The notes under the pieces were generated by a model. It had not been told where the DNA came from. It saw only the letters and a program-made list of their open reading frames with translations, and did no database searches. A program made the translations under genes and the position numbers. This document shows positions 7,432-25,039 of a stretch of 64,000 nucleotides of DNA, in pieces. Within the stretch, counting starts at the first letter, position 1. Each line of letters begins with the position of its first letter. Origin of the DNA: a virus. The stretch spans positions 1 through 64,000 of the IMG/VR virus record IMGVR_UViG_3300025264_002028; one strand, given 5' to 3'.

Positions 7432-10400
7432 ATGGCGGTGACTTTTAGTACACCGCTCCTTTTTGGGGCGAGAGTTATAAGCGTGAGCACATCTTTGGGA
7501 TGGGGAGGAGATTCTAGTACGTGCCAGTTGACGCTAGTAGATGATCCTGCTGATGGTTACACGTTAAGCTTGCCTGATGTAGGAACTGCCGTAGCGTTTC
7601 AATGGGGTGATTTTTATTTTGGTGGCGTATTTCAGCGGTATACACGTAAAAGAAGTCTGAGTGGTTTTACCTATGATGTAATTTTAGAATCTCCTTCTAA
7701 ATTAATGGATGGTATTCAGATTATTTTGGAAGGCTTTCAGGGTACCCAGTGGAGCTTAAGCGGAGCGGGGGGAGTATCTGATACCTTTACTAGTCAAATT
7801 AGTCAGGTTTGGAATCCATATGCGGTTAGAGAAAACTATAGTTTTGGAGGTATATGGGGGGGGGCGGATATAAATAGCGTTGGTTTTCCAGCTAAAGACG
7901 CTTTAACTTTGATTGAGGAGATATCAAAAGGCGAACATGACTTTGGAGGACCAGCCTATTTTGGAAACAGTTATTATGAAGTTGACTTATCAGAGATTAA
8001 AGACGCGCTCCCAGACAACTATAGAATTAAGGGGCCGGTGCAAAATTTAAATGCTATTCTGCAAGAATGTGCGGAAATTAATGTGCAAGATTATTTTGTT
8101 ACAGTTATAGGAGACGTTCCTAATCCTAGTACTGTTGATAGCGGTAATACTCCTACTACGCGCCCTGTGTTCGGGGGAAGCTCAGAGAGCGAGAACTTCG
8201 ATGTTATTGGAGTAGCAAATAATTCTCAAAAACGAGCAACCATACTTGTAAAAACTATATCAAGAAAAGCGCAACCTGAACCGGGTATTATTGAGCAAAT
8301 GGTTGAGCGAGCGTTTAACAATGGCGAGCTTATGTCGGCGGATAATGGTAAAGAATTATCAAACATCCCTACACAAAAACTTGTTATAGGCGGTCCTGCA
8401 AGTCGGTATATAGAAAAAACACAAAGTGAATTGATACCCATATGGTCCAAATCTCCTAATAATAAATATTTATTAGGTAGCGCTCTTCCTTCTGGTTATG
8501 ATAATTTTGCAACAGCTCCAGTACTACTGGATGATGGTTCCGTTTATCAGGCTACCGTTTTAGAAGTTAGATGTGCCCTATCTGACCGTAAAACATGGGA
8601 TACTTATCATGTGATTCAAGATGGGGGCGCTAGGACCGGAGCAGCCGCTCTAACAAGAGTGACTAATAATGTTATTGATAGAATGAATGAAAATATGGCT
8701 ACTCCCGGTTTACTGAAAGATAGTAGTGGTACAACCGCTAACGAACAGGCCAGATTTTTTAATAATCAAAACGTATCAGCTACCCCCGATAAAATTTTTA
8801 GTGCCGTACAAAGAGCTGGTTCAGAATTTTTTGGTAAGCAATTTTTGGTACAGCTTCCTTATGAAGAAGGGGGCTTTGCTAATAACTTGCGATGGATTGA
8901 TGAAGATAAAAAATATGAATCGTCTTGGGACATAGCTGATAGCGCATGGAGGGAAGATACTCCTATTAAGGATATATCATTTTATGACGGAGAAGGAAAA
9001 TTGGTTTCTGTTGCTACTTGGCCTATCAATGATAACCATGACTACAGCGCACTAGGGTCAAATTATGCTAAGACAGCCGCAGGAGACATGGCTGGAAAAG
9101 CTAATGTTAATAAGGAGATTTTATGGCTTGATTTTGGGTATGGAAGAAAACCTTATGCTACAGTTTCTTGTGACCAAGTTATGGCTTATGATACATATAC
9201 CACAGCTACTAATGGTCTCACATGGTTAATTTTTCTATTGGCGGGAAAGTTGGTTAGTCCAAAAAATTATGGTATGTTTGGTTTTGAAAATTCACAAATA
9301 CCACTAGGGCCAGTCCCAGCGGCTCCTAATATTGTAGGAATACCACAGCAAAGTAATCGTTATTCTTGGGGTCCTTGGTATAAATATGCTGCTCAAAATG
9401 GAAAAGCTGTAGTACAAGTGGAAGAAAGTTTACGCCCAGAAACTTTTGGTAATGCTGCTAAAATGGATGAGTCAGGTTTTACTTATGCAAATGTGGGCCT
9501 CGCTGAAATGACAGCAGATGAAAGTGGTTATGTAGAATTAGCCGAAGTACCCCAATATAATGTTGCTGATAGAATGGAAGATGTAGGTCCATATATAACT
9601 AGTATAGACATTAGTATAGGGGTGGATGGTGTCAAAACAACTTATAAATTTAATACTTGGACACCAAACTTTGGAAAGATAGCTAAGTATAATATAGATA
9701 GAATATCCAGAATCAATACAGCAAGTATTGCTTTTCTTCAGGATCAACGGAATAGAATTACAAAAAGGCCTTTACCCCAGAAACAACTTGGGACTGGCGG
9801 AACGTGGACAAGACCTAGAGTGCATGATGGATATGCTAAAATGCAAGGTATGTCAGGAATGGCTGGATTTTTTATGGGAGTAACAGCTTCCCCAGAAGTT
9901 CAAAGACCTGCGACATCCGCAATGGACCCCTCTGCTGCTTTACGCGGTATAGCAAATAATTTTGGTGGCTCTTGTTATTCTTCATGGGAACAATTAATTA
10001 GTCCTATATCTATTGACAAAGACCCTAGTGATAATAGTGTAACTCCCGGTTTTCGTCCTCCGGGACAAGGACATAATGATGATGACGATGACGGTGTTTT
10101 TGGGGGCGCAAGTACGCAGGTTGCGCCTACTAATATTGACTTGAGTCCATATTTTCCTCATATTTTTGCTTTTCACGGTGACGTAAGAAACACAGATTTT
10201 GAATTTGTAGTAAATTCTGATACTCATAGTGGCGATGGTCCGGGCCAAACAAATGATATTAATTTACAAAAGGTTACAATTGACCCGCTGAATGTAAGGC
10301 CCAATAATGCCCTTCGAGGGCCGCTAGTCATGTGCGGATGGGGTTATGATATTGCAAGTATGCCAACTCCAGCAGATGATACAGATCCTACTCAATTTAA

Positions 10401-10779
10401 TCTAGCTACTCCCCGTAATAGATCTTTATGGAAAACTGGCCCAGTTGATTTAATGTGGGATGATGAACGTCAAGTATGGTGTGGCGGCCTCTTGATGGTG
10501 GAAGGTATTCTGTCTGCCGATTTACAAAAACCAGCTAATACTGAAAGCCCTACAACAGCTAGTGTTGAATTATATCGTAGTATTAATGGAGAGTGGACAG
10601 GAGGAAAACCTAGAAAGGGGCCTGATGGACAAAGTGGCGCAACAGAAGAGATTGTATTAGTAAATAGAGACACTTCTCTAGAGGCACGAGCAGGAGCTTA
10701 TGTATTAGCGGTAAGAATAAATTATGAATGGCGTCCTTTAGTTGTTACCTGTACATCGCCACCTTCATCTTCTAGTTAA
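7432..10779 (+). CDS. Putative tail/baseplate hub-like structural protein
   Basis: 1115 aa, AGGAG RBS. The N-terminus (GWGGDSSTCQLTLVDD...YDVILESP) and the internal ITSIDISIGVDGVKTTY segment resemble tail hub proteins. Function inferred from context. Confidence 0.45.
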   Translation: MAVTFSTPLLFGARVISVSTSLGWGGDSSTCQLTLVDDPADGYTLSLPDVGTAVAFQWGDFYFGGVFQRYTRKRSLSGFTYDVILESPSKLMDGIQIILEGFQGTQWSLSGAGGVSDTFTSQISQVWNPYAVRENYSFGGIWGGADINSVGFPAKDALTLIEEISKGEHDFGGPAYFGNSYYEVDLSEIKDALPDNYRIKGPVQNLNAILQECAEINVQDYFVTVIGDVPNPSTVDSGNTPTTRPVFGGSSESENFDVIGVANNSQKRATILVKTISRKAQPEPGIIEQMVERAFNNGELMSADNGKELSNIPTQKLVIGGPASRYIEKTQSELIPIWSKSPNNKYLLGSALPSGYDNFATAPVLLDDGSVYQATVLEVRCALSDRKTWDTYHVIQDGGARTGAAALTRVTNNVIDRMNENMATPGLLKDSSGTTANEQARFFNNQNVSATPDKIFSAVQRAGSEFFGKQFLVQLPYEEGGFANNLRWIDEDKKYESSWDIADSAWREDTPIKDISFYDGEGKLVSVATWPINDNHDYSALGSNYAKTAAGDMAGKANVNKEILWLDFGYGRKPYATVSCDQVMAYDTYTTATNGLTWLIFLLAGKLVSPKNYGMFGFENSQIPLGPVPAAPNIVGIPQQSNRYSWGPWYKYAAQNGKAVVQVEESLRPETFGNAAKMDESGFTYANVGLAEMTADESGYVELAEVPQYNVADRMEDVGPYITSIDISIGVDGVKTTYKFNTWTPNFGKIAKYNIDRISRINTASIAFLQDQRNRITKRPLPQKQLGTGGTWTRPRVHDGYAKMQGMSGMAGFFMGVTASPEVQRPATSAMDPSAALRGIANNFGGSCYSSWEQLISPISIDKDPSDNSVTPGFRPPGQGHNDDDDDGVFGGASTQVAPTNIDLSPYFPHIFAFHGDVRNTDFEFVVNSDTHSGDGPGQTNDINLQKVTIDPLNVRPNNALRGPLVMCGWGYDIASMPTPADDTDPTQFNLATPRNRSLWKTGPVDLMWDDERQVWCGGLLMVEGILSADLQKPANTESPTTASVELYRSINGEWTGGKPRKGPDGQSGATEEIVLVNRDTSLEARAGAYVLAVRINYEWRPLVVTCTSPPSSSS

Positions 10780-10790
10780 GGAATACAGCT

Positions 10791-13700
10791 ATGAGACCCT
10801 GCTGCTGTAAAGAAGAAGGCTGCGAAATTAAATCGGGTTTTTCTATTATTATCAAGCATGGTGCCAGTGATCTATATCCTGAAGGAGCCACTACTACTTA
10901 TACTGAAATAAAAGATAAGTATGATATTCCAGAAAGCCTTGATGGTCTTGAGGTTTTTTGGGAGGCGGATAAAGGAATACCAGAATCTATTGAATTTCGT
11001 TTTGATAAAGGTAACAAATATGCATATTATGCAAACTTAGAGTGGACTCAAGGACGACTCCCTCCTGCGTCGATTGAAAGAGATGTATTAGATGCTAGTA
11101 ATACTAGCCCTATAGAAGTTATTACTAGTGTGGAACACGGGTTTAAAACTGGCGATAAGGTTGATCTGGTTGGAGCTATTGGTAATACTGCGGCCAATGG
11201 TGAGTGGCATGTGGTTGTTATTGACAAATATACGTTCTCCTTGCTTGGCTCTACAGGAAATGGAGACTTTGATATAACATCCAATGCTACAGTAAAAATG
11301 TCAGATATAACAGCCCCCACCATAAAAGAAACATTTTTTTCTTATCTTATAGGTAGCGAAATTGGCTACTTTAATACCATAGCAGACTGGGATTACGAAA
11401 AGGGCACACTTAGAGAAACAACATTAAGGATGTTTGCAGAGGGCTATAGTAGAAAATATCCTACTATTCGTGGAACAGATGCCTCAGATGATCTAATATT
11501 TGAACCTCCTGAACTGTCTATGGCACTAGCACAAGATGTGGCTAACTTAGTATTTCGTGATTCGCAAGCGTCTTTTGGTTATGAACCTAAGGTGTGGACA
11601 ACGCAAGATTTTTCTTTCAAAACCAAACCAGACTTTGATAAATATTTTTCTGAAAGCGATATGTCGTCTTATTCTTTATTAATAGATTTTGCGCCAACCG
11701 TTCAACCATACAATTTTGCCCCACTAAATGTAGCCATTAAAGACCCTGTTGAAGGAGGTCCCACATCTGTTACGTTATTAACATTATCGTATAAAGCGTC
11801 ATGGGGTGCTAGTTATGCAGACCATAGAAAAGTGGGAGGTACGTTAACAGCGTTTGATATTTCTGATGATGACAGTGCAACTTTGCAAACATTATTAAAT
11901 AGTACAGAAAGCTTGAGCGGTATTCCTGATGAAAATATTACTGAGGTATTGTTTACAGCTATAGAAGCTCAACAGCCGTCTACCAATTCTACGGCTACTA
12001 TGAAAGATAAATATGATATTACCATACAGTTATTAAAAGATAATCCTGTAGACGACCTAATATTTTATAGACGAGATGAAGATGGAAACGTATTGAATAA
12101 TTGTGACGGAATAAAATACGCTAGAGCACCAATTAATAAAACATATGTAACATATATTGACCCTAGAGGCAGTTGGATTAATGGAAATGATATAAACATC
12201 TTTATGAGAAAAAAGTATACGTATGTTGATCCTAATTTTCTACGTAACATTCGCAACATTTCTCAAACCCAAGCTCCCAATGCCCCTGTTATCGTTACTA
12301 TTTCAGGAGTACATGGTTTTGAAGATGGAGATAAGGTGCGTATTTTTGATGTCAATGGTGCAATGGGAGACGAAATTGATGGAGACTGGTATATTGATGT
12401 GATTTCAGAAAACTCGTTTTCCTTAAGGGATGCGCCGCTTGTTAGTTTTTTGGACTATTCAGGAGGCGGTAAAGTTAGACAGTTTTTACAAAAAGAGGTA
12501 GATTATTTAATAAATATAGGTAGACAGGCTTCTGTTAGTAATTCTTGTGGTGCGGTGGTAGCGGATTGTGGGGATTTTGGTTTTAAGTTTGGTGCTACTA
12601 CAGACAAATTGTGTGACCCTGTTTTACCTCCTGTGCAAAATATGAAAAAGCCTTTTATTAGTTCCTTTATGGATTGGGAGCCTGATCTTGAAAATTGTCG
12701 CTTTTCTGATTATGATGGTTATAAGGAGGATTACCTAAGTAAAGCGACTATGTTTACACAGAATGGCTATAGACATTATAATAACCAAAGCTATTTAGCT
12801 AATTTTAAGAAAGAATGCGCGCCCCCAAAAGAAGCGAGTGGCTATAAAATATATACTATTAAAGGAACTTTTATTAAATATGATCTTGACACATGGCATG
12901 AGGCTAATGATTCTAACCCAAGGAAGTTTCCTATTGAAGGAAGCCCTTGTGTTGAAGGCTTTACGCCCAAACATCAAATGAAGTTTGAGTGTGTCAATAA
13001 CGCTAGTCTAAGTTCTAAAGTATACCCCACCTGCTACTGGGATTTTCCTAAAGGTATTGACGAAATGGCTCCTATGACACCTGCTAGATTTATGAATCTA
13101 GAACTATTAACGGGAGAAAAATTTTATATCTATGGATCTAAACGTGTGGGTGAAGACCTACATATACAAGAGTATGTTAGTCAGTGGCCAGCAACCTTTT
13201 ATGAAGGTGCGTTGTATGAATTTCCTACGTCTGCTGATACGGCCCTTTTATTTGGGCAGTCTTCATCATGTGTATGGGAAGAGTGTGTTACAGAAGTCGG
13301 AAAAACATTTGGAGGATCACTACTTAATACTTCGTTAGATAGCGTGGGACCTATTGAAGCTTTTCCAAACCTTTCTAGTTCTCCTATAGAAATAAAAGTG
13401 GGTGGGCCACACGGCTTAAAAAATAACGACCTAGTGGTAGTAGCGGGTGTTTTAGGTAACACCGCAGCCAATAATGATTCACCGGGCGCTCCCGATAAAT
13501 GGTCTATTACTGTAACGGGTCCTGACACGTTTTTGCTAAATGGATCGGATAGTAACGGCACATACGCGGGAAGTGGCACTGTAACGCATAGGGTTGATAA
13601 TGTGGAACCTCCTGCATATAAAGCAGATCCTACTACAGGAAAACCATATATTGTTAAAATTAAGCCAGATAAAACGGGATGGCACTATAATGGGTGTATA

Positions 13701-15404
13701 GAAACCCGTTGGGACGCTTTGGATTATGAAGATGATATTATTTATGAGGATGAAGAAGTTGATCCCTATGGGACTAGTATCAAAAAAGTGGAACCTAAAG
13801 ATCCCGGATGGATACAGGAAAACCTATGCAACACAACAAAAAAATATGTTACAGAACTATGGTATAAACATAAGTTAAATTCATCTTTGAGGCGCCCGTC
13901 CAAGACATTACCTTTTATAGGTAGTTTTGGGCATGATGAAAATTATCCTGAAGGTGAAGGTAACGCAATAGCTCATTTGGCGGCTAAAACATGGATAAGG
14001 TCACAAGTAATTGAGGCTACTACTTTATTAAAGCTCGGGTCTATCCCGTGTATATGGGAAACGGACGGATCATGGGTTGATATAGGAGGTATAGAGGCAG
14101 CTACTATTAATTCAGGATATAGTAATGGTATGCTTGATGTACAATTTGATACTAAAGAGTATCATTTACAAAATGGTTGCCAAACTACTAATCAACAGGA
14201 TACTGGGGGCTATAATATAGCGGGACATAAATTAAGTCTGGAAAGTCCAACACAGGGGGAGATAGATCCATGTGGTCTCGAAGGTAAACAAGGCAGCTGG
14301 CAGATTCATAGCAAGGTAATGTCGGGATATGACTTTACAACTAGGAGTTATTATAAAGTCGATCCAAATTGGGCTACATGTCATCCCGAGCTAGAGGGAA
14401 CAGGAAGGTATGCGAGATCTTGTAAGTATGCTCCAAGTGCTGATATTGAAGTTAAAACATGTTTAAGTTATGGTCGTGATGTGTCAGGTATGGGGTTTAG
14501 TGTTTTGGGGGGCACATGTTCAACTGATGATGATCCTCCTATGCCAAAACCCGCTATACATATAGGAGAATTCAGCATAGATCTTGATTTATATAATCCA
14601 GTAACTAAAATTTCTGAATGTTACGATGACACAGATCCATTCGCTGTGCTTCCTGTAGTTGATTGTACTGATGTTATAGATTCTAGGTGTTGCGATAGTA
14701 ATTATTGTCGTTTTACTTTAGCGGATAATATTATAACAATGGACGGAGAGCATAGAGAAGTATATGTAAATATTAGTGATGTATCTCCTCCGTTTGCTAT
14801 TGCAACAAGTGCGGGTACTAAAATAATTGAGTGGAATTTAGGGTGTAATGTATATTTTGATTTTGCGTCTACCTTACCTATCAAGGGTAGCACTACTGAT
14901 AATTGTAGTCATAGTACTGTTATATCTGAATTTGGTGGAGGCACCAGTGGAACGGTATATTTTTATACGAAAACTGTTGCAAATGCGTTGGTCGAATGGG
15001 AGTTAAATGATATATATATTGGTGCTTCTAGTATTGATTTTGGTGGCGACGTTACCATATGTACTGACGTGCGAGGGTGTGGAGGTTGTTCTGTTTGTAT
15101 AAAAGAAGGGGCTACATGTACATCATGTGCAGATGGAACCCAACACATTATTACACCTCTTACTCCGTCTACTACTGCGCGGACACAAAACGTAATCAAA
15201 TGTTTGGGTAAGTGTAAAAATAGCGCATATCCACTAGATAGTGACGTAGAATACTGGCCCAGAGCTATATGTGGCGTTGAAGATTGGACTGGATGTTGTT
15301 TATCGGCATCCCCATTGTTTTGGACAAATTATGGCGCATGTAGTCACGCAGCTACACGATTGTTAAAGGTAAATATTTCACAATTAGGAGGAATAGATGA
15401 CTAA
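10791..15404 (+). CDS. Large Cys-rich virion protein with three E1-FCCH-like beta domains
   Basis: 1537 aa, starts MRPCCC. Three copies of an HG(F/L)xxGDxV...G.W.(V/I)...D.FSL-type domain. Cys-rich C-terminal third. Confidence 0.55.
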   Translation: MRPCCCKEEGCEIKSGFSIIIKHGASDLYPEGATTTYTEIKDKYDIPESLDGLEVFWEADKGIPESIEFRFDKGNKYAYYANLEWTQGRLPPASIERDVLDASNTSPIEVITSVEHGFKTGDKVDLVGAIGNTAANGEWHVVVIDKYTFSLLGSTGNGDFDITSNATVKMSDITAPTIKETFFSYLIGSEIGYFNTIADWDYEKGTLRETTLRMFAEGYSRKYPTIRGTDASDDLIFEPPELSMALAQDVANLVFRDSQASFGYEPKVWTTQDFSFKTKPDFDKYFSESDMSSYSLLIDFAPTVQPYNFAPLNVAIKDPVEGGPTSVTLLTLSYKASWGASYADHRKVGGTLTAFDISDDDSATLQTLLNSTESLSGIPDENITEVLFTAIEAQQPSTNSTATMKDKYDITIQLLKDNPVDDLIFYRRDEDGNVLNNCDGIKYARAPINKTYVTYIDPRGSWINGNDINIFMRKKYTYVDPNFLRNIRNISQTQAPNAPVIVTISGVHGFEDGDKVRIFDVNGAMGDEIDGDWYIDVISENSFSLRDAPLVSFLDYSGGGKVRQFLQKEVDYLINIGRQASVSNSCGAVVADCGDFGFKFGATTDKLCDPVLPPVQNMKKPFISSFMDWEPDLENCRFSDYDGYKEDYLSKATMFTQNGYRHYNNQSYLANFKKECAPPKEASGYKIYTIKGTFIKYDLDTWHEANDSNPRKFPIEGSPCVEGFTPKHQMKFECVNNASLSSKVYPTCYWDFPKGIDEMAPMTPARFMNLELLTGEKFYIYGSKRVGEDLHIQEYVSQWPATFYEGALYEFPTSADTALLFGQSSSCVWEECVTEVGKTFGGSLLNTSLDSVGPIEAFPNLSSSPIEIKVGGPHGLKNNDLVVVAGVLGNTAANNDSPGAPDKWSITVTGPDTFLLNGSDSNGTYAGSGTVTHRVDNVEPPAYKADPTTGKPYIVKIKPDKTGWHYNGCIETRWDALDYEDDIIYEDEEVDPYGTSIKKVEPKDPGWIQENLCNTTKKYVTELWYKHKLNSSLRRPSKTLPFIGSFGHDENYPEGEGNAIAHLAAKTWIRSQVIEATTLLKLGSIPCIWETDGSWVDIGGIEAATINSGYSNGMLDVQFDTKEYHLQNGCQTTNQQDTGGYNIAGHKLSLESPTQGEIDPCGLEGKQGSWQIHSKVMSGYDFTTRSYYKVDPNWATCHPELEGTGRYARSCKYAPSADIEVKTCLSYGRDVSGMGFSVLGGTCSTDDDPPMPKPAIHIGEFSIDLDLYNPVTKISECYDDTDPFAVLPVVDCTDVIDSRCCDSNYCRFTLADNIITMDGEHREVYVNISDVSPPFAIATSAGTKIIEWNLGCNVYFDFASTLPIKGSTTDNCSHSTVISEFGGGTSGTVYFYTKTVANALVEWELNDIYIGASSIDFGGDVTICTDVRGCGGCSVCIKEGATCTSCADGTQHIITPLTPSTTARTQNVIKCLGKCKNSAYPLDSDVEYWPRAICGVEDWTGCCLSASPLFWTNYGACSHAATRLLKVNISQLGGIDD

Positions 15405-16161: not shown

Positions 16162-17082
16162 ATGGCAGAAATTACATTTGGCATAGATGGCCAAGAAAAT
16201 ATAGTAGGATCGGGCCTTGGGTTTTTTGGGGCTACGTTTGGTTCCTCGGTCCAGATAGGTTCCTATCAGGATTCTACATATGTTACTAATTCCGATGGTA
16301 CCACTCAGGGACCAGTGGATCTAAATACCAAATTTACCAATTCGGGTTCTGGAACTGCTAATGGTATTACCACAGAAGACGGTATTAGGTACTTTAATTC
16401 CAGTCGCCGAAGTCTGGAAATCAACTTCGATCACACATCTGAAGTTAATGTGCAGAATGTACAACTGAGAATATATGATAGGGATAATATCAACTATCCC
16501 GCCTCAGGTGTCAATACCAAAGTGTGCGAGTTGCTAAACTTTGACAGCAAAGATTACGACGCATGGAAAACAAACAATGGAGATGACAGTACTAATGGTA
16601 AAGCTGGCGCCGCTATTGGCTCTGGTGACCTTTTCTGGTGGGGTGCGGGCTGGAAAAATACCGAAGTTTCACAGGATTATTACGATAATTCTTCTGGTAT
16701 TCGGTTTTTTAACTTCACCGATACCGACGCCGTTGCGGGCGCGGGAAATGGTGATGGTCGACTCCAGAATACTGTGACAGGTAATACTGAAACCGTAGGT
16801 GGTACGGGAACTATTGTTCCACTCTTTAATTCTCCCGGTAGCGGACAAAGATTCTTAGATAATGATTATGATTCCACCTTTAGACCCAAATGGGTCCAGT
16901 ATTACAACAATGGTTTACGTCCCTCCGGCGTTCCTGATTATGGTTCTGCCACCACGACAGGTACTTATGGGGGAAGTGGTATTGACGCTAGACATACATG
17001 GAGATTGGGTATGTCTGCTACACCATTAAGCATTGGGTCTAAGACTCAGTACGGATTATACGTGTCTCTAGAATATCTATAA
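16162..17082 (+). CDS. Putative abundant structural protein
   Basis: 306 aa, G/T/N/S-rich, with its own promoter-like element, a strong RBS and a downstream terminator. Confidence 0.5.
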   Translation: MAEITFGIDGQENIVGSGLGFFGATFGSSVQIGSYQDSTYVTNSDGTTQGPVDLNTKFTNSGSGTANGITTEDGIRYFNSSRRSLEINFDHTSEVNVQNVQLRIYDRDNINYPASGVNTKVCELLNFDSKDYDAWKTNNGDDSTNGKAGAAIGSGDLFWWGAGWKNTEVSQDYYDNSSGIRFFNFTDTDAVAGAGNGDGRLQNTVTGNTETVGGTGTIVPLFNSPGSGQRFLDNDYDSTFRPKWVQYYNNGLRPSGVPDYGSATTTGTYGGSGIDARHTWRLGMSATPLSIGSKTQYGLYVSLEYL

Positions 17083-17106: not shown

Positions 17107-17140
17107 AAAAGCCCCGCTTCGGCGGGGCTTTCTTTTATTT
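17107..17140. terminator. Bidirectional rho-independent terminator at the convergence of the two arms
   Basis: AAAA-GCCCCGC-TTCG-GCGGGGC-TTTCTTTT: perfect 7-bp GC stem, cUUCGg tetraloop, A-tract on the left and T-tract on the right. Confidence 0.9.
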
Positions 17141-18046
17141 CTTGAGGTCATTATATATATAACTAGCAACTGCAATATCTTCAATAGCTAATCCGGTAGA
17201 GTCAAACAATGATATATCAGAATCCAAACGATTAAAATCAGGGTTTACTACTTCAGATAAGTTGATAAAATTGTCCCTATTTTCTGTATGCTGAGATTCT
17301 CCAGAATGGAACGCCTGAGCTTTATCATCCACAACACATATATTACATATATTTCCTAAATTGTCTTCAAACTCCTGTTTACCTTCCGCGTCTGCTCCAA
17401 TAGCATTAATGTGTATACCCGGTTTGAGCCATTCTGATTTAATAAAAGGCTTTCTTGAGGGAGTCAGGGTGGTCAATATATCACTTCCACATACGCAATC
17501 TTCTAGCGTTTCACATACGGTAATATTGCCACCAAAAATTGCTACTAAATGATCACATTTAGCCTGATCTAAGTCAAACAATTTGATATGCTTTATATCT
17601 CTTACGTTTAAAATAGCTTCGATTTGGTATTCTGTTTGGAATCCACATCCTACAAAAGCTGCAACTGTAGAATCCTTTTTAGAAAGATATTTTGTGGCAA
17701 CGCCGGTAACGGCTGCTGTTCTATAAGAAGTGATTAGCATACCATCCATCATAGCTATGGGATATCCTGTATCAATATCGTTTAACATAATTACTGCTGA
17801 TACGCTGGGACCAAATTTATTTTTTTCATTATTGGGAAAAATAGAAGCCCATTTAATACCTACTGCGTTACCAAATCTAGCTGGCATTGCCCTAAAGTCA
17901 TTTTCTCCATCCAGCTCCAAATAAATTTTAGGGGGCATTTGTCCTTTGTCTGGATTTTGAAAAACATCTTCCATTATTTTGATGATAGGTTTCATAACAA
18001 GATAGGGAAGAATGTCTTTTTCTTTTATTTGTTTGATGTTATTCAT
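17135..18046 (-). CDS. Ornithine cyclodeaminase/mu-crystallin family protein (resembles archaeal-type alanine dehydrogenase)
   Basis: MPPKIYL, FRAMPA, GIKW, TSYRTAA, Rossmann GCGFQ, HINAIGAD, FDSTGLAIED. Confidence 0.88.
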   Translation of the reverse strand: MNNIKQIKEKDILPYLVMKPIIKIMEDVFQNPDKGQMPPKIYLELDGENDFRAMPARFGNAVGIKWASIFPNNEKNKFGPSVSAVIMLNDIDTGYPIAMMDGMLITSYRTAAVTGVATKYLSKKDSTVAAFVGCGFQTEYQIEAILNVRDIKHIKLFDLDQAKCDHLVAIFGGNITVCETLEDCVCGSDILTTLTPSRKPFIKSEWLKPGIHINAIGADAEGKQEFEDNLGNICNICVVDDKAQAFHSGESQHTENRDNFINLSEVVNPDFNRLDSDISLFDSTGLAIEDIAVASYIYNDLKK

Positions 18047-19130
18047 GGATTTCTAGCTCATTAAGAAGTGTATTGAATAGAGAAACTGGAACATCCTGAT
18101 ATCCTAATGGCCTATTAAGGCTGTTTATATTAGGATTATCCTCTAGACAAGCAAATATGGCAGCGACTAACCCTCCAGATGTGGCACGCTGCATGGCAGA
18201 ATAACCGTCTTTAACTCGTACAAGGTTGGTTTTTCTGTATTTATCGTTGGTACTAGTGGCTTCTACGTCTACAATAACTACATCATCAAACTTTCGGTGG
18301 TCATCACGAAATAACGCTCCTAGCTGGGTGGCATTGAATTTTCTTTGTTCCAAAAAATAAGAGACGAAATCTCTATGTCCTTGGTATCTTAACGTTTTAT
18401 AGGAACAGTTATATACGCCACGATCTTTCATGAGGTTTAATGTGTGTGATATTCCCCCACTTGTAGTGAAGGCCTCTAAGTATTCTATAGTAAATGATTC
18501 TAATTTGGAAGATTGTATTCTTACATATTCTGTTTCTTTGAGAGGGGGAATTTTTTTGAATTCTCCATCTATCAAAATCTCACAATCGTCTACATACTCA
18601 TTGTATAAGCCCTGAACTGACCAAGTTGGCCTATAGTTAAATGGATCTACGGCTTCTGGTACCTTCCTCGCTGGAATTCCACCACACCTAATTTTAACTT
18701 CAATAGGAGTTTCTAACATTTCATGATAAGCTTCTTCTGCCATAATATTAGCCCATCCGGGTGCCAAACCTAAATCAGTAAAAACGGTAGCGTTATTTTC
18801 TTCAGCCATTTGGTTAATTTTATTGCTAGTAGGTACTGATCCACCAAGGTCACAGTATAAAATTTTACTTTTAATAGCAGCCTTAGCCACAGGTAAACTA
18901 ACATTATATGGCAATGAAGAAATTATGAGGTCAAAAGTTTCATCATTTTTAAAGTCTGGATCATTGTGGTTACCTATAGAGATGGCCCTAAATTTTATAT
19001 GTCTATCTGTTTCTAGAGTGGGGGAGGGATTTTCTATATCAAAAGTAGTGATGAAATGATCACCAAGTTTTTTAATCATATGGGCTATAGCGTGTCCCAT
19101 TTGTCCAGTACCAAATAATGCTATATTCAT
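18039..19130 (-). CDS. Saccharopine dehydrogenase / lysine 6-dehydrogenase family protein
   Basis: GTGQMG, SSLPY, YCDLGG, GLAPG, WSVQGLYNEY, EAFTTSGG, YKTLRYQGH, SAMQRAT. Confidence 0.85.
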   Translation of the reverse strand: MNIALFGTGQMGHAIAHMIKKLGDHFITTFDIENPSPTLETDRHIKFRAISIGNHNDPDFKNDETFDLIISSLPYNVSLPVAKAAIKSKILYCDLGGSVPTSNKINQMAEENNATVFTDLGLAPGWANIMAEEAYHEMLETPIEVKIRCGGIPARKVPEAVDPFNYRPTWSVQGLYNEYVDDCEILIDGEFKKIPPLKETEYVRIQSSKLESFTIEYLEAFTTSGGISHTLNLMKDRGVYNCSYKTLRYQGHRDFVSYFLEQRKFNATQLGALFRDDHRKFDDVVIVDVEATSTNDKYRKTNLVRVKDGYSAMQRATSGGLVAAIFACLEDNPNINSLNRPLGYQDVPVSLFNTLLNELEIHE

Positions 19131-19131
19131 T

Positions 19132-20196
19132 CTAGTATCCTCTTACTGCATTTTGACAAACCAATCCCCGTTCTTTAGTCCAATTTTGGGCTTCCTTGAT
19201 AAGGCCATCACTCCAAAGCTTTAGAGCGCCGCTCTGCATTGCCCTCCCAAAGGAGAATGAAAGTCGCCAAGGCTTTTTTTCTTCATCGGTTGATAAACTA
19301 TCTAATCTATTGATATGACTTAAATTTTCAATTGCTTCATCGTCTGATTGTCCCCCGCTTAAAAATGCGATAGCTGGTAGGGCACAGGGTACCTCATTTC
19401 TCAAACATTTAACCGTCATCTTAGCTACAGTTTCCGCATCTGCCCTATCTTTACTTTGATATCCTGATACAATCATATTTGGTTTTAGTATCGTATGCTC
19501 CAGTTCTACATCTTCATAATGTAGGGCGTCAAATAATATATGTAAAACCTGTCTTGTTATTCTATATGAATCTTCTATAGAATGTATTCCATTCATTAAA
19601 ACTTCTGGTTCTACAATAGGTATAATACCGTGCGATTGACATTTTTTAGCATAACGAGCTAACGTCCAACAGTTTGCTAAAAGCCCTTGGGGGCTATTGT
19701 TCTGTAGGAGTACAGCTCTCCACTTAGCAAATTGTGCTCCCAATTCTTTATACTCTACTAACCTTTGATCTAAGCCGTCAAGACCTTCTGTCAGGGTTTC
19801 ATTAGAATCTACAAAATATGGTTTGGCACCTTTATCTACTTTAATTCCTAGCACTATATCGTTTTCAATAAGTGGTGCTATTGTTTCTTCATTTCTGAGG
19901 GTTTCATCAAAAAGGATAACACCACCCACTGACTTCTTAAGGTCCGGTGTAGAAAAAATAGTATGACGATATGAATGTCTAGTTTCAGGTGTAGATTCTT
20001 GACCCACAGACCCAAGTCTATTGGCTATTGTTCCGTCACTTTCATCAGCGGCCAAGATACCCCGAAAATTTTTGAAAATCTTTTTGATAGTCTGATGCAC
20101 TAGACGTGTCTCCTCCTTTAAAAGTTCTTCGCGAAACTCTGGATCACGATTGATACGGTTTTGCACGGTCTCTTTAAAATCCCTAGTTAATCCCAT
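19132..20196 (-). CDS. fba: Fructose-bisphosphate aldolase, class I, with an N-terminal extension
   Basis: GILAADES, GIKVDKG, FAKWR, PIVEPEV, Schiff-base LKPNM, FLSGGQ, FSFGRA, C-terminal Tyr. Confidence 0.93.
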   Translation of the reverse strand: MGLTRDFKETVQNRINRDPEFREELLKEETRLVHQTIKKIFKNFRGILAADESDGTIANRLGSVGQESTPETRHSYRHTIFSTPDLKKSVGGVILFDETLRNEETIAPLIENDIVLGIKVDKGAKPYFVDSNETLTEGLDGLDQRLVEYKELGAQFAKWRAVLLQNNSPQGLLANCWTLARYAKKCQSHGIIPIVEPEVLMNGIHSIEDSYRITRQVLHILFDALHYEDVELEHTILKPNMIVSGYQSKDRADAETVAKMTVKCLRNEVPCALPAIAFLSGGQSDDEAIENLSHINRLDSLSTDEEKKPWRLSFSFGRAMQSGALKLWSDGLIKEAQNWTKERGLVCQNAVRGY

Positions 20197-20197
20197 C

Positions 20198-20623
20198 TTA
20201 TCTTTCTTTTTTCGTTTTTTCTGAAATTAAAAATGACTCTAAGTCACTTCTGGTGGTAGTAGAAAGCATTATATTTATTTCTGGTATAGCAAACAAGATC
20301 CAATGCCACATAAGACCACCTATAAGATAAGCAGGATTAATTTCTGGGACAGCCTCAAGTATCATATAACTATAAGCCATACACAACATTATTCTAATAG
20401 GCATAAGTCCTAGTGTAGCGGGTACTAAAAGCGCATTGTTGTTATGAAATCTCCAAAAGGGAATCATCCAACTCAATGTAAAAATTAACATTGGAGGAAT
20501 GGATGCTAGTAAGGTTTTTCCTAATATAGGTTTAATCATATACAAAGGTAACACAATGATCAAAAACGAACACGCTATTAAACTTACGAGCAAAATTAGA
20601 TTATGTTTTAAAACTGTATTCAT
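20198..20623 (-). CDS. Small integral membrane protein (about 4 TM helices)
   Basis: 141 aa with four hydrophobic segments, tightly packed between lat and fba. Confidence 0.6.
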   Translation of the reverse strand: MNTVLKHNLILLVSLIACSFLIIVLPLYMIKPILGKTLLASIPPMLIFTLSWMIPFWRFHNNNALLVPATLGLMPIRIMLCMAYSYMILEAVPEINPAYLIGGLMWHWILFAIPEINIMLSTTTRSDLESFLISEKTKKER

Positions 20624-20626
20624 ACA

Positions 20627-21844
20627 TCAACTTTCCTTTTGTAATTCATAAATAGCATCATCAATAAAACTACAAGCGATATCTGCGTCCTCCTTAGAAA
20701 ATGTTAAAGCAGGCCTTAGTCTAATAGACTTTGTTCCACATGTTAATACTAACATTTTTTTTTGTAACACATCTTTCAATCTATCTCTTTTGGGTGTAGT
20801 ATCTAAATCAAAGGCTATCATCAACCCTTGGCCACGAACATTTTTTAGTTCTTTTCTATCGGATAAAGCATTCATAAAATGGGTGCCTACTTGAGCCGCA
20901 TTTACTACTAGATTTTCTTTTTTTATAGTATCTATAATATATTGGAACCTTACCATATCTACTATATTGCCGCCCCACGTAGAATTAATTCTTCCACTAG
21001 TAGAGAAGACATTTTCTTTTACCTCGTCTATTCTTTCGGTAGCACAAAACCCACAGACTTGTGTCTTCTTTCCGAAGCACATCATGTCAGGGATTACACC
21101 AAAGTGTTCATATGCCCACATTCTACCAGTAGCTCCTAATCCTGTTTGAACTTCATCAAATATGAGCATGGATTCATATGTATCTGCTAAGCTTCTTAGC
21201 TCATGAAAAACTTGAGGGTTAAAATGTCTATCTCCTCCTTCCCCCTGAATGGGTTCTACAACAATAGCTGCAACATCATGATGCATATATTGATCAAGCT
21301 TATCAATATCGTAAATAGTTGACCAATTAAACTGCGGGAAAAATTTTGTTTTATTTAATTCAGTATTAGTTAGAGATAATGTATATCCAGTACGTCCATG
21401 AAACGCTTTATACAGATGGACCACATCCATCCCATTGACTGATTCTTGATTGTATATACCTAATTTTTGGGCCTTCCAATCAAATGCTGCCTTCAGAGCA
21501 TTTTCTACTCCTAAGGCGCCCCCATCAATAAAAAAATAATGACTAAAATCTGGAGTTATTTCTGCAAATTTTTCTACAAAATTCACGTAGTCCCTAGAAT
21601 ACATATCACTATTGGCTAGTTTATGGAGGGCCGCTTTTCCTAAGTGGAATTGGGCACTAACAAGTGACGGATGATTCCAGCCTAGAGGTTGACTAGCAAA
21701 CTGAGAATAACAGTCTAAAAAATGTTGACCTGTTTCTGCATCTATAATCCAAGAGCCATGGCTTTCCTCAGGGTCTACAACAACATGAAAACCATCAGTA
21801 AGTATATGCTTAGACAATCTACTCATAATGTCAGGGTTAGGCAT
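20627..21844 (-). CDS. lat: L-lysine 6-aminotransferase (class III PLP aminotransferase)
   Basis: SQFASQPLGWNHP, GALGVENALKAAFDWK, AFHGRTGY, EPIQGEGGD, DEVQTG, PLP-Lys FGKKTQVCG, RINSTWGGNIVDMVR. Confidence 0.88.
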   Translation of the reverse strand: MPNPDIMSRLSKHILTDGFHVVVDPEESHGSWIIDAETGQHFLDCYSQFASQPLGWNHPSLVSAQFHLGKAALHKLANSDMYSRDYVNFVEKFAEITPDFSHYFFIDGGALGVENALKAAFDWKAQKLGIYNQESVNGMDVVHLYKAFHGRTGYTLSLTNTELNKTKFFPQFNWSTIYDIDKLDQYMHHDVAAIVVEPIQGEGGDRHFNPQVFHELRSLADTYESMLIFDEVQTGLGATGRMWAYEHFGVIPDMMCFGKKTQVCGFCATERIDEVKENVFSTSGRINSTWGGNIVDMVRFQYIIDTIKKENLVVNAAQVGTHFMNALSDRKELKNVRGQGLMIAFDLDTTPKRDRLKDVLQKKMLVLTCGTKSIRLRPALTFSKEDADIACSFIDDAIYELQKES

Positions 21845-22617
21845 TTTACAGCTCCTCCAGATTTCATGAATTCTGACATATTGCAGGTAATCGCATTACT
21901 AAACAGATTACCACAATTATTTGCAGGGGTAACGACTTGACTTTTAACAGAAACGCTATTGCATATAAAATTATATGCTTCCTCTTCCGACACACTGCTA
22001 ATTTTGACACTAAGATTTTCTTGAGCAATATATTGTACCAATTTAGTCATGCCACCTACCAACGATTCAGGAGTAAAGGCCTTTTCATAAAAACAAATAT
22101 GATTATCAGAAACAAATAAACAGGTATCTAGATGGTAGAAGTTTGGATTTTTTAATTCTAAAGAGATATAATCTACGTCAAAAATATCTGCTACCATTGA
22201 GTGTGATTCTTTATCAGTTCTAAATCCATGTCCCATAAATAGCAAGTCTCTAAAGAAGAGGGCGTCTCCAGCTCCTTCAAAATGAATATCATCGGGAAGC
22301 AATATAGTTTCGTAACCGTGTTGAAGAAACCATTTTTCAAATAGGTCTTTTTCACCTCGCCTTTCCTTGTGTTTAAAATTTGACAGAATCACTTGCTTGT
22401 CTTTTACAAGACCAGCATTAGCTGTAAAAACCATATCAGGAAAATCTGCATGAGGACGTATATGTTCTATTTTTGCTCCAGCGGAGCTTAATGCATCAAT
22501 CATAGTCCGCCATTGAGACATCGCCAGACTTTCATTTGGATTATTATGAATATCCATCCACGGATTAATTTCGTAGCGGACATCAAAATATTCTGGGGAG
22601 CACAATAAAACTTTCAT
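21823..22617 (-). CDS. Amidinotransferase/pentein-family hydrolase (arginine dihydrolase ArgZ/AgrE N-domain-like or DDAH-like)
   Basis: YEINPWM, PDMVFTANAGLV, FEGAGDAL, YHLDTC, catalytic Cys in KSGGAVKCLTL. Confidence 0.85.
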   Translation of the reverse strand: MKVLLCSPEYFDVRYEINPWMDIHNNPNESLAMSQWRTMIDALSSAGAKIEHIRPHADFPDMVFTANAGLVKDKQVILSNFKHKERRGEKDLFEKWFLQHGYETILLPDDIHFEGAGDALFFRDLLFMGHGFRTDKESHSMVADIFDVDYISLELKNPNFYHLDTCLFVSDNHICFYEKAFTPESLVGGMTKLVQYIAQENLSVKISSVSEEEAYNFICNSVSVKSQVVTPANNCGNLFSNAITCNMSEFMKSGGAVKCLTLTL

Positions 22618-24110
22618 TTCATCCCCTGTGGAAATGCTAGGGTTTCGTCATGGTTTACTGTCCACGATACCTCGTGTGTTACAGCCCTGAAAGTCCGAGC
22701 AGCCGAAGGATATCCATTGCCAGACTTTTTCACGCCGCCAAACGCAAGATGAGACTCAGCAGCAATAGAGCCGCCGTTCCAATAACACATTCCATACTCA
22801 CAATAATCACGACATCGTCTAGCCTTTTTAAAGTCTTCTGTGACCACTCCAACAGCCAACCCATAATCTGTGTCATTATAAATACGAATAGCATCATCAA
22901 CATTATCAAAAGGAATAATTGCAACGTGTGGTCCAAATACTTCATTTTTAAGATAAGGCGCGTCACGCCATTCAGTTTGGTAAGCTAGTGGGCTAACAAA
23001 ATGTCCGGGCGGCGTATACTTAGGCTCTATCAGAACCGTAGCTTCTGAATCTTGCATGACCATATCATTAAAACCTAATACTCTATCAAGTTGTTGTTGA
23101 TTAATAAGAGGACCCATATAGGCATTTTCATTGGGCTGTGACTGAGTTAGCAAAGAGTCGTCTGTAAAAGGAGGTCCTGTCTTTATTTGTTTTGCATAAT
23201 GGACAAAGGATTCACAAAACTTATCATAGATTCCCCGCTGTACAATGATTCTTCCAGAAGATACGCATCTTTGCCCTGATAGTTTAAAAGCACTAGCAAT
23301 AGAGGAAGAAACAGCTAGGTCAAAATTAGCATCATCAAACACTATAACAGCAGACTTACTACCCATTTCACAGGAACAAGTTTTGTGCCAGCTATGAGCG
23401 CAAACATATCTAATATGTTGACCTACTTCAGCGCTGCCTGTAAAGCAAATATGGTCTACGTTCTGACGGGCGAGATAATCACCTACCTTACCGTCTCCAT
23501 GAAGTAGATTAATTACTCCCGGAGGAACTCCAGCATCATGATACAGCTCCATAGCTAGTTGTGACGTGTAAGGAGCGTCTTCACTTGGTTTGAGAATGAC
23601 AGTATTACCCTCAACAATAGCAGGGGCAGCACACCAAAAAGCACCAATGGCCAGAGGAAAATTCCAAGGACTAATAATAGCGACCACCCCTTTAGGTTTT
23701 CGCAGCATATAGGAGTCTTTTTCAGAAATTTCGGACGCAACGGATTCTCCCTGTGGGGTGCGCCCAGAGCCAAAAGCATATTGAGCCATGTGTAGTGCTT
23801 CATTTACTTCGGCAATAGACTCGTTATAATTTTTCCCAGTTTCATGGGATATTGCACGGGCTAATACTTCTCGACGCTCTTCAATCAACTTAGCAACTTC
23901 ATACAAATATTCTGCACGTTGCACCCTACTTACATCGCGCCAACTATGAAAAGCTTTTCTGGCATGGGCATACGTCTCTTCTATCTCTGCTTCGGTAGAG
24001 TTAAAAAAAACACCCAAAGACTGTTCGGTACAAGGATCTAGATTATCGAAGAATGAATCCGAAGCACTACCAACAAATTGACCATTAATATAGTTTTGAG
24101 CGTCCCACAT
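22614..24110 (-). CDS. Aldehyde dehydrogenase (candidate aminoadipate/glutamate semialdehyde dehydrogenase)
   Basis: ISPWNFP, LKPSE, FTGS, CEMGSK, catalytic GQRC, EVFGP, FGGVKKSG. Confidence 0.92.
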   Translation of the reverse strand: MWDAQNYINGQFVGSASDSFFDNLDPCTEQSLGVFFNSTEAEIEETYAHARKAFHSWRDVSRVQRAEYLYEVAKLIEERREVLARAISHETGKNYNESIAEVNEALHMAQYAFGSGRTPQGESVASEISEKDSYMLRKPKGVVAIISPWNFPLAIGAFWCAAPAIVEGNTVILKPSEDAPYTSQLAMELYHDAGVPPGVINLLHGDGKVGDYLARQNVDHICFTGSAEVGQHIRYVCAHSWHKTCSCEMGSKSAVIVFDDANFDLAVSSSIASAFKLSGQRCVSSGRIIVQRGIYDKFCESFVHYAKQIKTGPPFTDDSLLTQSQPNENAYMGPLINQQQLDRVLGFNDMVMQDSEATVLIEPKYTPPGHFVSPLAYQTEWRDAPYLKNEVFGPHVAIIPFDNVDDAIRIYNDTDYGLAVGVVTEDFKKARRCRDYCEYGMCYWNGGSIAAESHLAFGGVKKSGNGYPSAARTFRAVTHEVSWTVNHDETLAFPQGMK

Positions 24111-24111
24111 A

Positions 24112-24600
24112 TTATAATCCTTTAGTACTGTTCATTAGGTTTTTAACATTATTTTGACAAAATCCCTTATCTCCTCTCTCTATAAGCTCTATAATAATAC
24201 CCCCTAAATGATCTAAAGGTTTAGTAAATATTTGTCTCATATTATCATCGGGGCAATCAATGACATTTTCTGTGAGAAACTCTACTCCCTTTTCCTTCCA
24301 CTCCTTCACTTTATCTTCTATATGAAGAACTTGATAGGCCATATGATGAATGCCCCCTGTTCCTCCTCGCTCTTGTACCCATTTGTCTACAATAGAATCA
24401 GTTGTTCCATTGGATACAAAAATTTCAGGAGAAATATGACGTGCGCCAGCAGCTGGCTCTAGGACTAGGCATTCGGCCGTAGACTCATCATCAAATTTAA
24501 TTTCAAACTCTGTGACTGTTCTATAGTTCAGAGTTGCCTTCAGAAATTCTGCGGCCTTATGTCTGTCCGTAACTCTATATGCTATGTGATCTAATCTCAT
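24112..24600 (-). CDS. VOC-fold protein resembling the stand-alone C-terminal catalytic domain of HPPD
   Basis: LDHIA, GGIHHMAY, RQIFTKP and IELIER..GFCQNN give a His-His-Glu metal triad in 162 aa. Confidence 0.75.
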   Translation of the reverse strand: MRLDHIAYRVTDRHKAAEFLKATLNYRTVTEFEIKFDDESTAECLVLEPAAGARHISPEIFVSNGTTDSIVDKWVQERGGTGGIHHMAYQVLHIEDKVKEWKEKGVEFLTENVIDCPDDNMRQIFTKPLDHLGGIIIELIERGDKGFCQNNVKNLMNSTKGL

Positions 24601-24611
24601 TAAATGCTTTC

Positions 24612-24697
24612 AAAAAAAAACGGGTTTTATCGAGTTTGATCAGTACAGAATGGGGGACCCGAAACCATCTGCAAACTAAAGCCGCTGACCAAACCGG
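24612..24697 (-). ncRNA. Candidate structured cis-regulatory leader (riboswitch/attenuator-like) upstream of the amino-acid operon
   Basis: Nested stems 24634-24643/24685-24694 and 24644-24653/24665-24673. Their mismatches are G-U wobbles only on the - strand. Loop CGGGU is complementary to downstream ACCCG. U9 tract at 24612-24620. Confidence 0.5.
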
Positions 24698-25039
24698 CTA
24701 TTCCAAAGTCTTTTTCTCCTGATTCCATTTCATCCATCCATTATCGGGGAGCCAGTTTCCATCTATATCTTTACGTTTGGGAAATAGTCCACCGCCCTTT
24801 TTGTTTACCCCAAAGGCCAACTTAGCATGACACTTCTTGCACTTCAGCTCAAAGTACTCATTACCTTCATTTTCCCTTACAATATATCTTAGGTTATCCG
24901 ACCCACATTTGCCACATGTATTTTCAGAAAAAACCTCCTGAAATACAGATAAATCCTTGAAAACATCCTTAACGGTTTCAGCTTCAAATTCAACCGATAC
25001 GTTACCCGTGCTACATTTTACTCTCATAATCATCTCCAA
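24698..25039 (-). CDS. Hypothetical zinc-ribbon protein
   Basis: CGKC...CKKC; overlaps the upstream stop. Confidence 0.65.
   Translation of the reverse strand: MEMIMRVKCSTGNVSVEFEAETVKDVFKDLSVFQEVFSENTCGKCGSDNLRYIVRENEGNEYFELKCKKCHAKLAFGVNKKGGGLFPKRKDIDGNWLPDNGWMKWNQEKKTLE

Follow-up and report, generated by a model that had tools for sequence, protein, structure and literature searches.

A candidate modular operon for basic amino acid catabolism on a marine viral contig

Background

Most auxiliary metabolic genes of phages are single genes that act on photosynthesis, carbon, phosphate, sulfur or nucleotide supply. The described systems that come closest to the locus studied here are the arginine dihydrolases ArgZ and AgrE of cyanobacteria, the pair formed by lysine 6-aminotransferase (LAT) and piperideine-6-carboxylate (P6C) dehydrogenase (Pcd), the arginase route RocF-RocD-RocA and an archaeal L-lysine dehydrogenase. 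The locus is an operon of eight genes on the minus strand (positions 24600-17135) of a 64,000-nucleotide stretch of IMG/VR virus record IMGVR_UViG_3300025264_002028; this whole stretch is referred to as the window. On balance, the operon appears to be a modular auxiliary metabolism by which basic amino acids would be degraded from the omega end and their nitrogen passed to NH3 and glutamate during infection. We infer every step of this route.

The enzyme combination occurs in no cultured phage among 50,697 phage records. These records gave lone DDAH-like genes, a single fructose-bisphosphate aldolase (FBA) and a huge uncultured phage whose LAT and aldehyde dehydrogenase (ALDH) genes are separate. 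No description of a phage module of this type was found in the literature. The remark of the first-pass annotation of the window, which was made from the DNA letters alone, that it knew of no described phage with such a module is thus borne out by both searches.

Results

Gene content of the operon

The eight open reading frames (ORFs) are spaced by 1-3 nt or overlap by 4, 22 or 8 nt; the 22-nt overlap is between the pentein and LAT genes. Their coordinates and the Pfam and NCBIfam matches agree with the first-pass annotation, which had listed eight co-oriented, abutting or overlapping genes in the same family order. All seven enzymes have a family assignment and intact catalytic motifs. In operon order, the genes are:

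24112-24600, minus strand: VOC protein of 162 aa that resembles the catalytic C-terminal half of 4-hydroxyphenylpyruvate dioxygenase (HPPD) and hydroxymandelate synthase (HMS) (Glyoxalase_4, 5.8e-10)
22614-24110, minus strand: NAD(P)-dependent ALDH of 498 aa from a phage-specific subfamily, proposed omega-semialdehyde dehydrogenase (Aldedh, 5.4e-127)
21823-22617, minus strand: stand-alone ArgZ/AgrE-like pentein of 264 aa, proposed arginine dihydrolase (DDAH/arginine-dihydrolase-like; PDB 6jv0/6lrf, E 3e-53)
20627-21844, minus strand: LAT-family class III aminotransferase (Aminotran_3) of 405 aa (TIGR03251, 479.8 bits)
20198-20623, minus strand: small hydrophobic protein of 141 aa with approximately 3-4 membrane spans (hydropathy)
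19132-20196, minus strand: class I FBA of 354 aa (NF033379, 371.4 bits)
18039-19130, minus strand: saccharopine-dehydrogenase-family enzyme of 363 aa, called the dehydrogenase below (Sacchrp_dh_NADP and Sacchrp_dh_C; fold nearest to L-lysine dehydrogenase)
17135-18046, minus strand: ornithine cyclodeaminase (OCD)/mu-crystallin family enzyme of 303 aa (PF02423, 4.8e-77)

Conserved core and its configurations

An IMG/VR scan with the window aminotransferase returned 41 loci. ALDH, pentein and LAT lie in the same order in 22 of them, with 44-84% identity. Related loci (denoted by L numbers) were compared by ORF clustering of 21 IMG/VR loci and by a pairwise comparison of the window with L125, an independent 43-kb metagenome contig. 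The ALDH-pentein-LAT core is constant and colinear in 23 of 23 phage contigs, which are otherwise rearranged. The dN/dS of the core genes against L004 is approximately 0.05-0.10, and the core genes are under purifying selection. In the trees of pentein, LAT and ALDH, the phage sequences group in a single clade each time. The module is not limited to this contig; judged by sequence comparison, it is widespread in marine viral contigs (Tara, IMG/VR) and has at least three interchangeable configurations.

The genes around the core vary. VOC precedes ALDH at most loci and is missing in L005, L043 and L125. FBA is found in many relatives, but several kilobases off. A 161-kb carrier genome, which CheckV scores as 100% complete and which has a terminase, has OCD far from the core and no dehydrogenase. 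In L009 and its kin the cassette, with OCD and dehydrogenase, is located between the N- and C-halves of a split DnaE, beside a DnaQ-like exonuclease (L009:3614-15478). Relative to L125 the window has two insertions; one holds an upstream RNA element and VOC (24099-24698), and the other is the membrane protein gene. The L125 operon continues past OCD (8533-10689) with a 613-aa acyl-CoA dehydrogenase, in which each of the three ACAD domains is present, and a HAD-like protein of 104 aa. Neither gene occurs anywhere on the 103-kb contig to which the window belongs.

The third configuration came from a scan of metagenome contigs with the dehydrogenase. In these Tara and other contigs VOC, ALDH and dehydrogenase are contiguous, the dehydrogenase is 52-54% identical to that of the window, and the flanks contain no pentein or LAT. 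The ALDHs of these phages nest in the cassette clade of the ALDH tree with a support of 98, and most cassette ALDHs are further from the window ALDH than these are. The ALDH is therefore orthologous between LAT-type and dehydrogenase-type cassettes. The dehydrogenase and VOC of the window are 52-70% identical to the copies in these phages, but only 41-43% identical to those of L004, whose surrounding genes are 76-85% identical to the window. This suggests that modules have been exchanged between phage lineages. The set is seen in L130:7991-11050 and also in L127-L129, L131 and L132, with three DUF1501 genes, an EF-hand protein, an IscA-like Fe-S protein and PhoH in the flanks. An 86-kb contig with the set has the three DUF1501 genes and PhoH, which places it in the same broad phage group.

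Several other genes accompany the cassette in relatives. A 121-aa ORF with a SET domain (protein-lysine-methyltransferase fold) lies between ALDH and pentein in L007 (8857-9222), L006, L010 and L016. Most relatives have a truncated homologue of UDP-glucose/GDP-mannose dehydrogenase (UGDH; 270-290 aa, without the UDP-binding C-terminal domain) after LAT (L007:11200-12060, L009:11173-12045), and the window copy is in a sugar-modification island at 33791-34609. A role for this gene as a reductase of pyrroline-5-carboxylate (P5C) or P6C was left out, since it matches UGDH structures only and the window copy is in the sugar island. In 11 relatives VOC is preceded by a protein of 140-150 aa with an N-terminal DxDGV motif (HAD phosphatase-like) and no Pfam match (e.g. 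L007:6379-6828).

Core enzymes

The alignment of the pentein with the dihydrolase domains of Sll1336 (ArgZ) and Alr4995 (AgrE) covers the full length, with an E value of 3e-53. The catalytic Cys, His and acid residues C259, H162 and D164 and the TAN asparagine N67, a residue with a role in ArgZ, are invariant in the family alignment, and the motifs FTAN, FEGAGD, HLDT and KCLT are kept. The score of 225.3 bits against the arginine dihydrolase model NF052232 is under the cut-off of 450. Against the bifunctional ArgZ model NF052231 the protein covers profile positions 6-268 of 696 alone, and the fused C-terminal domains are lacking. Cellular homologues are 37-43% identical. Any ALDH or class III aminotransferase is nearby at 8 of the 80 best cellular pentein loci, and the phage gene combination was not found in cells among these 80. 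In the pentein tree all phage sequences form one clade (support 99), and the sisters are two sequences from Gammaproteobacteria metagenome-assembled genomes (MAGs) on long branches (support 91). One sister gene (L049) is followed directly by an ornithine--oxo-acid transaminase (543 bits vs a cut-off of 378) and the other by an OlsF-like ornithine-lipid synthase. Since the nearest cellular kin adjoin enzymes that use ornithine, this neighbourhood suggests that ornithine is the product of the pentein kin. The pentein is therefore proposed, from homology, to convert arginine to ornithine, CO2 and 2 NH3.

The aminotransferase scores 360 bits against M. tuberculosis LAT (PDB 2cin). It keeps the motifs FHGR, QGEGG and GKK, which correspond to M. 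tuberculosis R170, E243 and K300 (the substrate arginine, the glutamate switch and the PLP lysine, respectively). The score of 479.8 bits against TIGR03251 (L-lysine 6-transaminase) is just under the cut-off of 520.8. A canonical cellular LAT in L051 reaches 552 bits and adjoins a true P6C dehydrogenase at 764 bits.

The ALDH has intact motifs for the catalytic Cys and Glu, and PWNFP, EMGSK and GQRCVS are present. None of the NCBIfam equivalogs is reached; the best score is 322 bits vs a cut-off of 770. In the scheme of the first-pass annotation, an ALDH oxidises the P6C formed by LAT; the phage ALDH is not of the P6C-dehydrogenase type that accompanies LAT in cells, since the equivalog NF050084 gives 246.6 bits vs a cut-off of 730.

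Accessory genes

The dehydrogenase matches both Pfam domains of its family (PF03435 and PF16653) and no NCBIfam model. The AF2 model has a pLDDT of 89.9. The top Foldseek match is 3abi, the L-lysine dehydrogenase of P. horikoshii (E 9e-23, TM 0.76-0.81, 23% identity), which is also the best sequence match (E 2.5e-18); saccharopine and carboxyspermidine dehydrogenases rank below it. The predicted fold thus makes lysine the most likely substrate. A role as carboxyspermidine dehydrogenase in polyamine metabolism was dropped, because structures of that enzyme come after those of lysine and saccharopine dehydrogenases in the ranking and a decarboxylase is absent.

The OCD-family protein scores 259 bits against PF02423 (gathering score 24) and reaches no equivalog (ala_DH_arch TIGR02371, 234 vs 409; OCD, 154 vs 350). 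In the PDB ranking 1omo is first (206 bits), Pyr2C reductase and ketimine reductase come next, and the cyclodeaminases are lower. By these scores, archaeal alanine dehydrogenase and the imine reductases are its nearest relatives, ahead of the cyclodeaminases.

FBA is above the cut-off of NF033379 (371.4 vs 250 bits). The motifs DES, KVDKG, AKWR, EPEV and LKPNM and the C-terminal Tyr are present, and the Schiff-base lysine is among the conserved residues. The sole homologue in a cultured phage is that of Prochlorococcus phage (cyanophage) P-TIM68, with 42% identity. Since the protein passes its equivalog, is unlinked to the core in relatives and has a cyanophage precedent, it probably serves carbon flux separately from the pathway, although the gene is co-transcribed here. 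Its inclusion in the pathway by the first-pass annotation is therefore less likely than an independent role in carbon metabolism.

VOC matches the HPPD model TIGR01263 (4HPPD) over profile positions 158-265 with 52 bits vs a cut-off of 277. At 162 aa it is too short for a two-domain HPPD (approximately 350 aa), and the C-terminal half alone is matched. Across 21 family members H5, H85/H86, E138, QIF(T/S)KP, ELIER, R142 and KGFC(QNN) are invariant, and by analogy the His/His/Glu triad would supply the iron ligands of HPPD-type enzymes. The AF2 model has a pLDDT of 84, and its Foldseek matches are split between methylmalonyl-CoA epimerase and the C-domains of HMS and HPPD. The family is almost wholly marine and viral. 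The Pfam family HGLS (PF07063) is not matched at E <= 0.01, and the sole link to HglS is a weak language-model feature similarity of 0.91 to a viral HglS cluster. By analogy with HPPD, VOC may be an Fe(II) 2-oxo-acid oxygenase.

The membrane protein belongs to no Pfam or NCBIfam family, and an Atlas search gave weak leads below threshold. It is absent from L004 and L125, and by this comparison it is a lineage-specific insertion. Kinship with the DUF2784 protein that follows the cassette in relatives was rejected (hhalign probability 1%).

Viral origin of the operon

The contig is a single piece of 103,239 bp without a terminal repeat and has a CheckV completeness of 67%; its first 64 kb make up the window. 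A family search found phage genes for RIIA, ribonucleotide reductase, DnaE split in two halves, DnaB, UvsX and an exonuclease on the contig. With these genes, the IMG/VR record and the complete 161-kb genome that carries the core beside a terminase, the view of the first-pass annotation that the contig is viral can be upheld. The source is most likely an uncultured marine phage of approximately 150 kb, and the nearest cultured phages have at most 35-40% identity in DnaE and RIIA. The operon is within a viral genome, has viral flanks and is kept in related viruses, as is expected of an auxiliary metabolic cluster.

It is extremely improbable that the cluster is a host fragment misassembled onto phage DNA. 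L125 is colinear with the window through both operon junctions at 74-84% DNA identity, and the core set occurs among phage genes in more than 20 IMG/VR contigs. G+C is even over the cluster and its flanks, the best cellular penteins are only distantly similar, and the arrangement was not found at the cellular loci. The colinearity of L125 and the IMG/VR carriers exclude a host fragment or a chimera as far as sequence comparison allows; on that comparison, the operon is viral and not host DNA.

The operon is bounded by two elements:

24612-24697, minus strand: upstream RNA element with a U9 tract at its end, which ends 11 nt before the VOC start codon
17108-17131, both strands: bidirectional intrinsic terminator between the operon and the convergent plus-strand gene 16162-17082

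The terminator has a 10-bp, GC-rich stem with 7 GC pairs, a 4-nt loop and T runs on both strands, and it confirms the terminator of the first-pass annotation. The structured leader proposed there corresponds to the U9-ended element in the 97-nt gap upstream of VOC. The nested fold of this element (-23.7 kcal/mol, z = -0.85) is no better than those of shuffled sequences.

The plus-strand gene at 10791-15404 encodes 1537 aa with two FCCH-like domains of ubiquitin E1 (PF16190, 6.8e-18) and no other family. Pfam and PHROG gave no match for the giant ORFs next to it (>2018, 451 and 1115 aa).

Discussion

Proposed pathway

The enzyme families fit the basic amino acid catabolism that the first-pass annotation had suggested; however, the operon is not one fixed eight-gene pathway, as ALDH-pentein-LAT alone is constant. 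In the proposed route, the ArgZ-like pentein would hydrolyse L-arginine to L-ornithine, CO2 and 2 NH3. The LAT-family enzyme, which would be translationally coupled to the pentein, would then move the omega-amine of ornithine and/or lysine to 2-oxoglutarate, giving glutamate and either glutamate semialdehyde (P5C) or aminoadipate semialdehyde (P6C). The lysine-dehydrogenase-like enzyme may open another way in, an NAD(P)-dependent reaction that sets the omega-amine free as NH3, most likely from lysine. The shared ALDH would oxidise the semialdehyde to glutamate or 2-aminoadipate. The OCD-family enzyme, as an imine reductase or a protein of the alanine-dehydrogenase type, may handle a cyclic imine (P5C/P6C type) or ammonia, and the half-HPPD VOC would be a usual yet dispensable partner of ALDH. 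As the net result, the nitrogen of host arginine and lysine, the basic amino acids that are richest in nitrogen or most abundant, would end up in NH3 and glutamate, and NAD(P)H would be formed as well.

The presence of one ALDH orthologue in both cassette types suggests that LAT and the dehydrogenase feed the same ALDH with the same kind of product, an omega-semialdehyde. An arginine/ornithine branch (pentein and LAT) and a lysine branch (dehydrogenase) would explain why pentein and LAT are never separated, why LAT and dehydrogenase occur together here, and why the dehydrogenase occurs alone elsewhere. The extra acyl-CoA dehydrogenase at the end of the L125 operon also supports a catabolic role.

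Further support comes from a second phage lineage, which accounts for the rest of the IMG/VR loci. These contigs of up to 532 kb have LAT without the cassette, in surroundings that are conserved and phage-like and include a LAGLIDADG endonuclease and a Dam methylase. A glutamate dehydrogenase (GDH) gene (6 loci) and a trypsin-like peptidase gene (10 loci) are 2-3 genes from LAT, and these LATs come nearest to the cassette LATs in the tree. LAT and GDH together would give a net deamination of lysine with 2-oxoglutarate regenerated, which is independent support for a role of phage LATs in nitrogen release. Example loci with LAT and GDH are L039:13100-15667, L020, L025, L027, L030 and L032.

Several observations weigh against the proposed route. 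The pentein scores 219 bits against the M. tuberculosis dimethylargininase model, which is under the cut-off of 300 and approximately equal to the 225 bits of the dihydrolase model. The homology of LAT points to lysine and not ornithine as the substrate. With LAT under its cut-off and the ALDH not of the P6C- or P5C-dehydrogenase type, the predicted substrates from the transamination to the semialdehyde oxidation are less certain. The division into two branches is one that we infer, and the lysine homology of LAT argues otherwise. No gene for GDH, glutamine synthetase or asparagine synthase is present in five related viral records, so these phages must leave the assimilation of the freed nitrogen to the host. 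The linkage of OCD, FBA and the dehydrogenase to the core is inconsistent, and part of the operon may therefore be coincidental packing. VOC has no place in the assigned catabolic steps. No promoter was identified for the operon, and the upstream RNA element may act as a transcription stop.

Alternative explanations

The homology of LAT, together with that of the dehydrogenase, also allows a route from lysine to 2-oxoglutarate. Here LAT and/or the dehydrogenase would form aminoadipate semialdehyde, ALDH would oxidise it to 2-aminoadipate, a host transaminase would give 2-oxoadipate, and VOC, as an analogue of HglS, would produce 2-hydroxyglutarate by oxidative decarboxylation; the pentein would be an unrelated arginine gene or would supply lysine from homoarginine. 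The closest characterised kin of the two entry enzymes are LAT and L-lysine dehydrogenase, VOC-ALDH is the most stable pair across configurations, and VOC keeps the HPPD-type triad and the QIFTKP motif. The weak language-model lead to HglS (0.91) agrees with this route, and the acyl-CoA dehydrogenase of L125 would suit glutaryl-CoA steps. However, the route leaves unexplained a pentein gene that is present in 23 of 23 LAT cassettes and overlaps LAT. VOC has no HGLS match and is missing from three loci, the ALDH is far under the P6C-dehydrogenase cut-off and unlike that of the canonical cellular LAT/Pcd pair, and no 2-aminoadipate transaminase is encoded. This route is therefore unlikely, although it is the most probable of the alternatives. 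A broader version, in which large marine phages convert both arginine and lysine to glutamate and 2-oxoglutarate, is less probable still. It would combine interchangeable entries (pentein and LAT, or dehydrogenase), the shared new ALDH and sometimes an acyl-CoA dehydrogenase with the half-HPPD protein (160 aa) as a minimal Fe(II) oxygenase for the HglS-type step from 2-oxoadipate to 2-hydroxyglutarate. If true, this protein would be virus-specific and the smallest known member of that reaction class.

The variation between relatives raises the question of whether there is a shared pathway at all. The locus may be a hot spot of independently acquired metabolic genes that are co-transcribed and act alone. 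FBA, OCD and the dehydrogenase change position between relatives, the window and L125 differ by cassette-sized insertions and deletions (leader with VOC, membrane gene, acyl-CoA dehydrogenase with HAD-like gene), and unrelated genes (SET-domain ORF, truncated UGDH-like gene, HAD-like gene) are interspersed in relatives. The low identity of the dehydrogenase and VOC to the L004 copies, in contrast to the flanking genes, points the same way. A hot spot does not account well for the order ALDH-pentein-LAT being kept in 23 contigs that are otherwise rearranged, including those with the insertion between the DnaE halves. The three enzymes also form a chemically consecutive series, and the replacement of pentein and LAT by a dehydrogenase beside the same ALDH orthologue is hard to explain without a shared intermediate. 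A hot spot without a pathway is thus rather improbable, about as much so as the broader conversion to 2-oxoglutarate. A biosynthetic module, whose product (proline, pipecolate or another compound derived from amino acids) would be an osmolyte or would supply the neighbouring glycosylation system with a substituent, is more improbable again. The cassette does border sugar-modifying genes in the window and in relatives, and proline or pipecolate are known products of OCD-family members and imine reductases acting on ornithine, lysine or the corresponding imines. However, the irreversible oxidation of the semialdehyde by ALDH would compete with imine reduction, many cassettes lack OCD or have it unlinked, and no ligase or transferase that attaches amino acids is seen beside the cassette. 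The compatible solutes and the link to cyanophycin mentioned in the first-pass annotation found no support in this analysis.

Significance

If the omega-end degradation of basic amino acids is correct, a conserved viral cassette of several enzymes turns each of the four nitrogen atoms of arginine, and the one in the side chain of lysine, into NH3 and glutamate. Phages of nitrogen-poor oceans would then reprogramme amino acid catabolism, presumably to feed the synthesis of a genome of approximately 150 kb. The interchangeable configurations are a natural experiment on how viruses assemble pathways. The operon is also a source of so far uncharacterised enzyme subfamilies, all of them small and soluble: the stand-alone dihydrolase related to ArgZ, the non-canonical pair of LAT and ALDH, the enzyme that resembles lysine dehydrogenase and the VOC protein that corresponds to half of HPPD.

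Comparison with known systems

The cyanobacterial enzymes ArgZ (Sll1336) and AgrE (Alr4995) (PDB 6juy, 6jv0, 6lrf) resemble the phage pentein over the full length of the dihydrolase domain, with the motifs kept. The OCD-family gene of the phage operon echoes the logic of AgrE, which leads from arginine through ornithine to proline. Unlike these enzymes, the phage pentein is a stand-alone protein of 264 aa without the C-terminal domains, scores below the NCBIfam cut-off and forms its own clade. It is coupled to a LAT-family enzyme and an ALDH and is not fused to a cyclodeaminase.

The pair of LAT and P6C dehydrogenase is known from M. tuberculosis (LAT is Rv3290c, PDB 2cin) and is seen in Verrucomicrobiales (L051). 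The phage LAT is likewise close to an ALDH, at a distance of two genes; however, it is under the LAT cut-off, its ALDH is not of the P6C type, and a pentein gene is always between the two. The arginase route RocF-RocD-RocA has the same three chemical steps that are proposed for the pentein, the aminotransferase and the ALDH. It differs in that the phage dihydrolase would free NH3 and not urea, the aminotransferase is of the LAT and not the ornithine aminotransferase family, and the ALDH is no recognised P5C dehydrogenase. The Gammaproteobacteria MAG L049 is similar in having a pentein gene followed directly by that of an ornithine--oxo-acid transaminase. The L-lysine dehydrogenase of P. horikoshii (3abi) is the best match of the phage dehydrogenase in both sequence and fold, but at 23% identity and with no NCBIfam model matched, the likeness in substrate follows from homology alone.

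Single auxiliary metabolic genes such as the FBA of P-TIM68 and the lone DDAH-like genes of Ralstonia phage RsoM2USA and Xanthomonas phage phiXF1 are, like the genes described here, metabolic enzymes of hosts that are carried by phages. The present locus differs from them in having three to seven enzymes of the same theme in one operon that is conserved as a unit.

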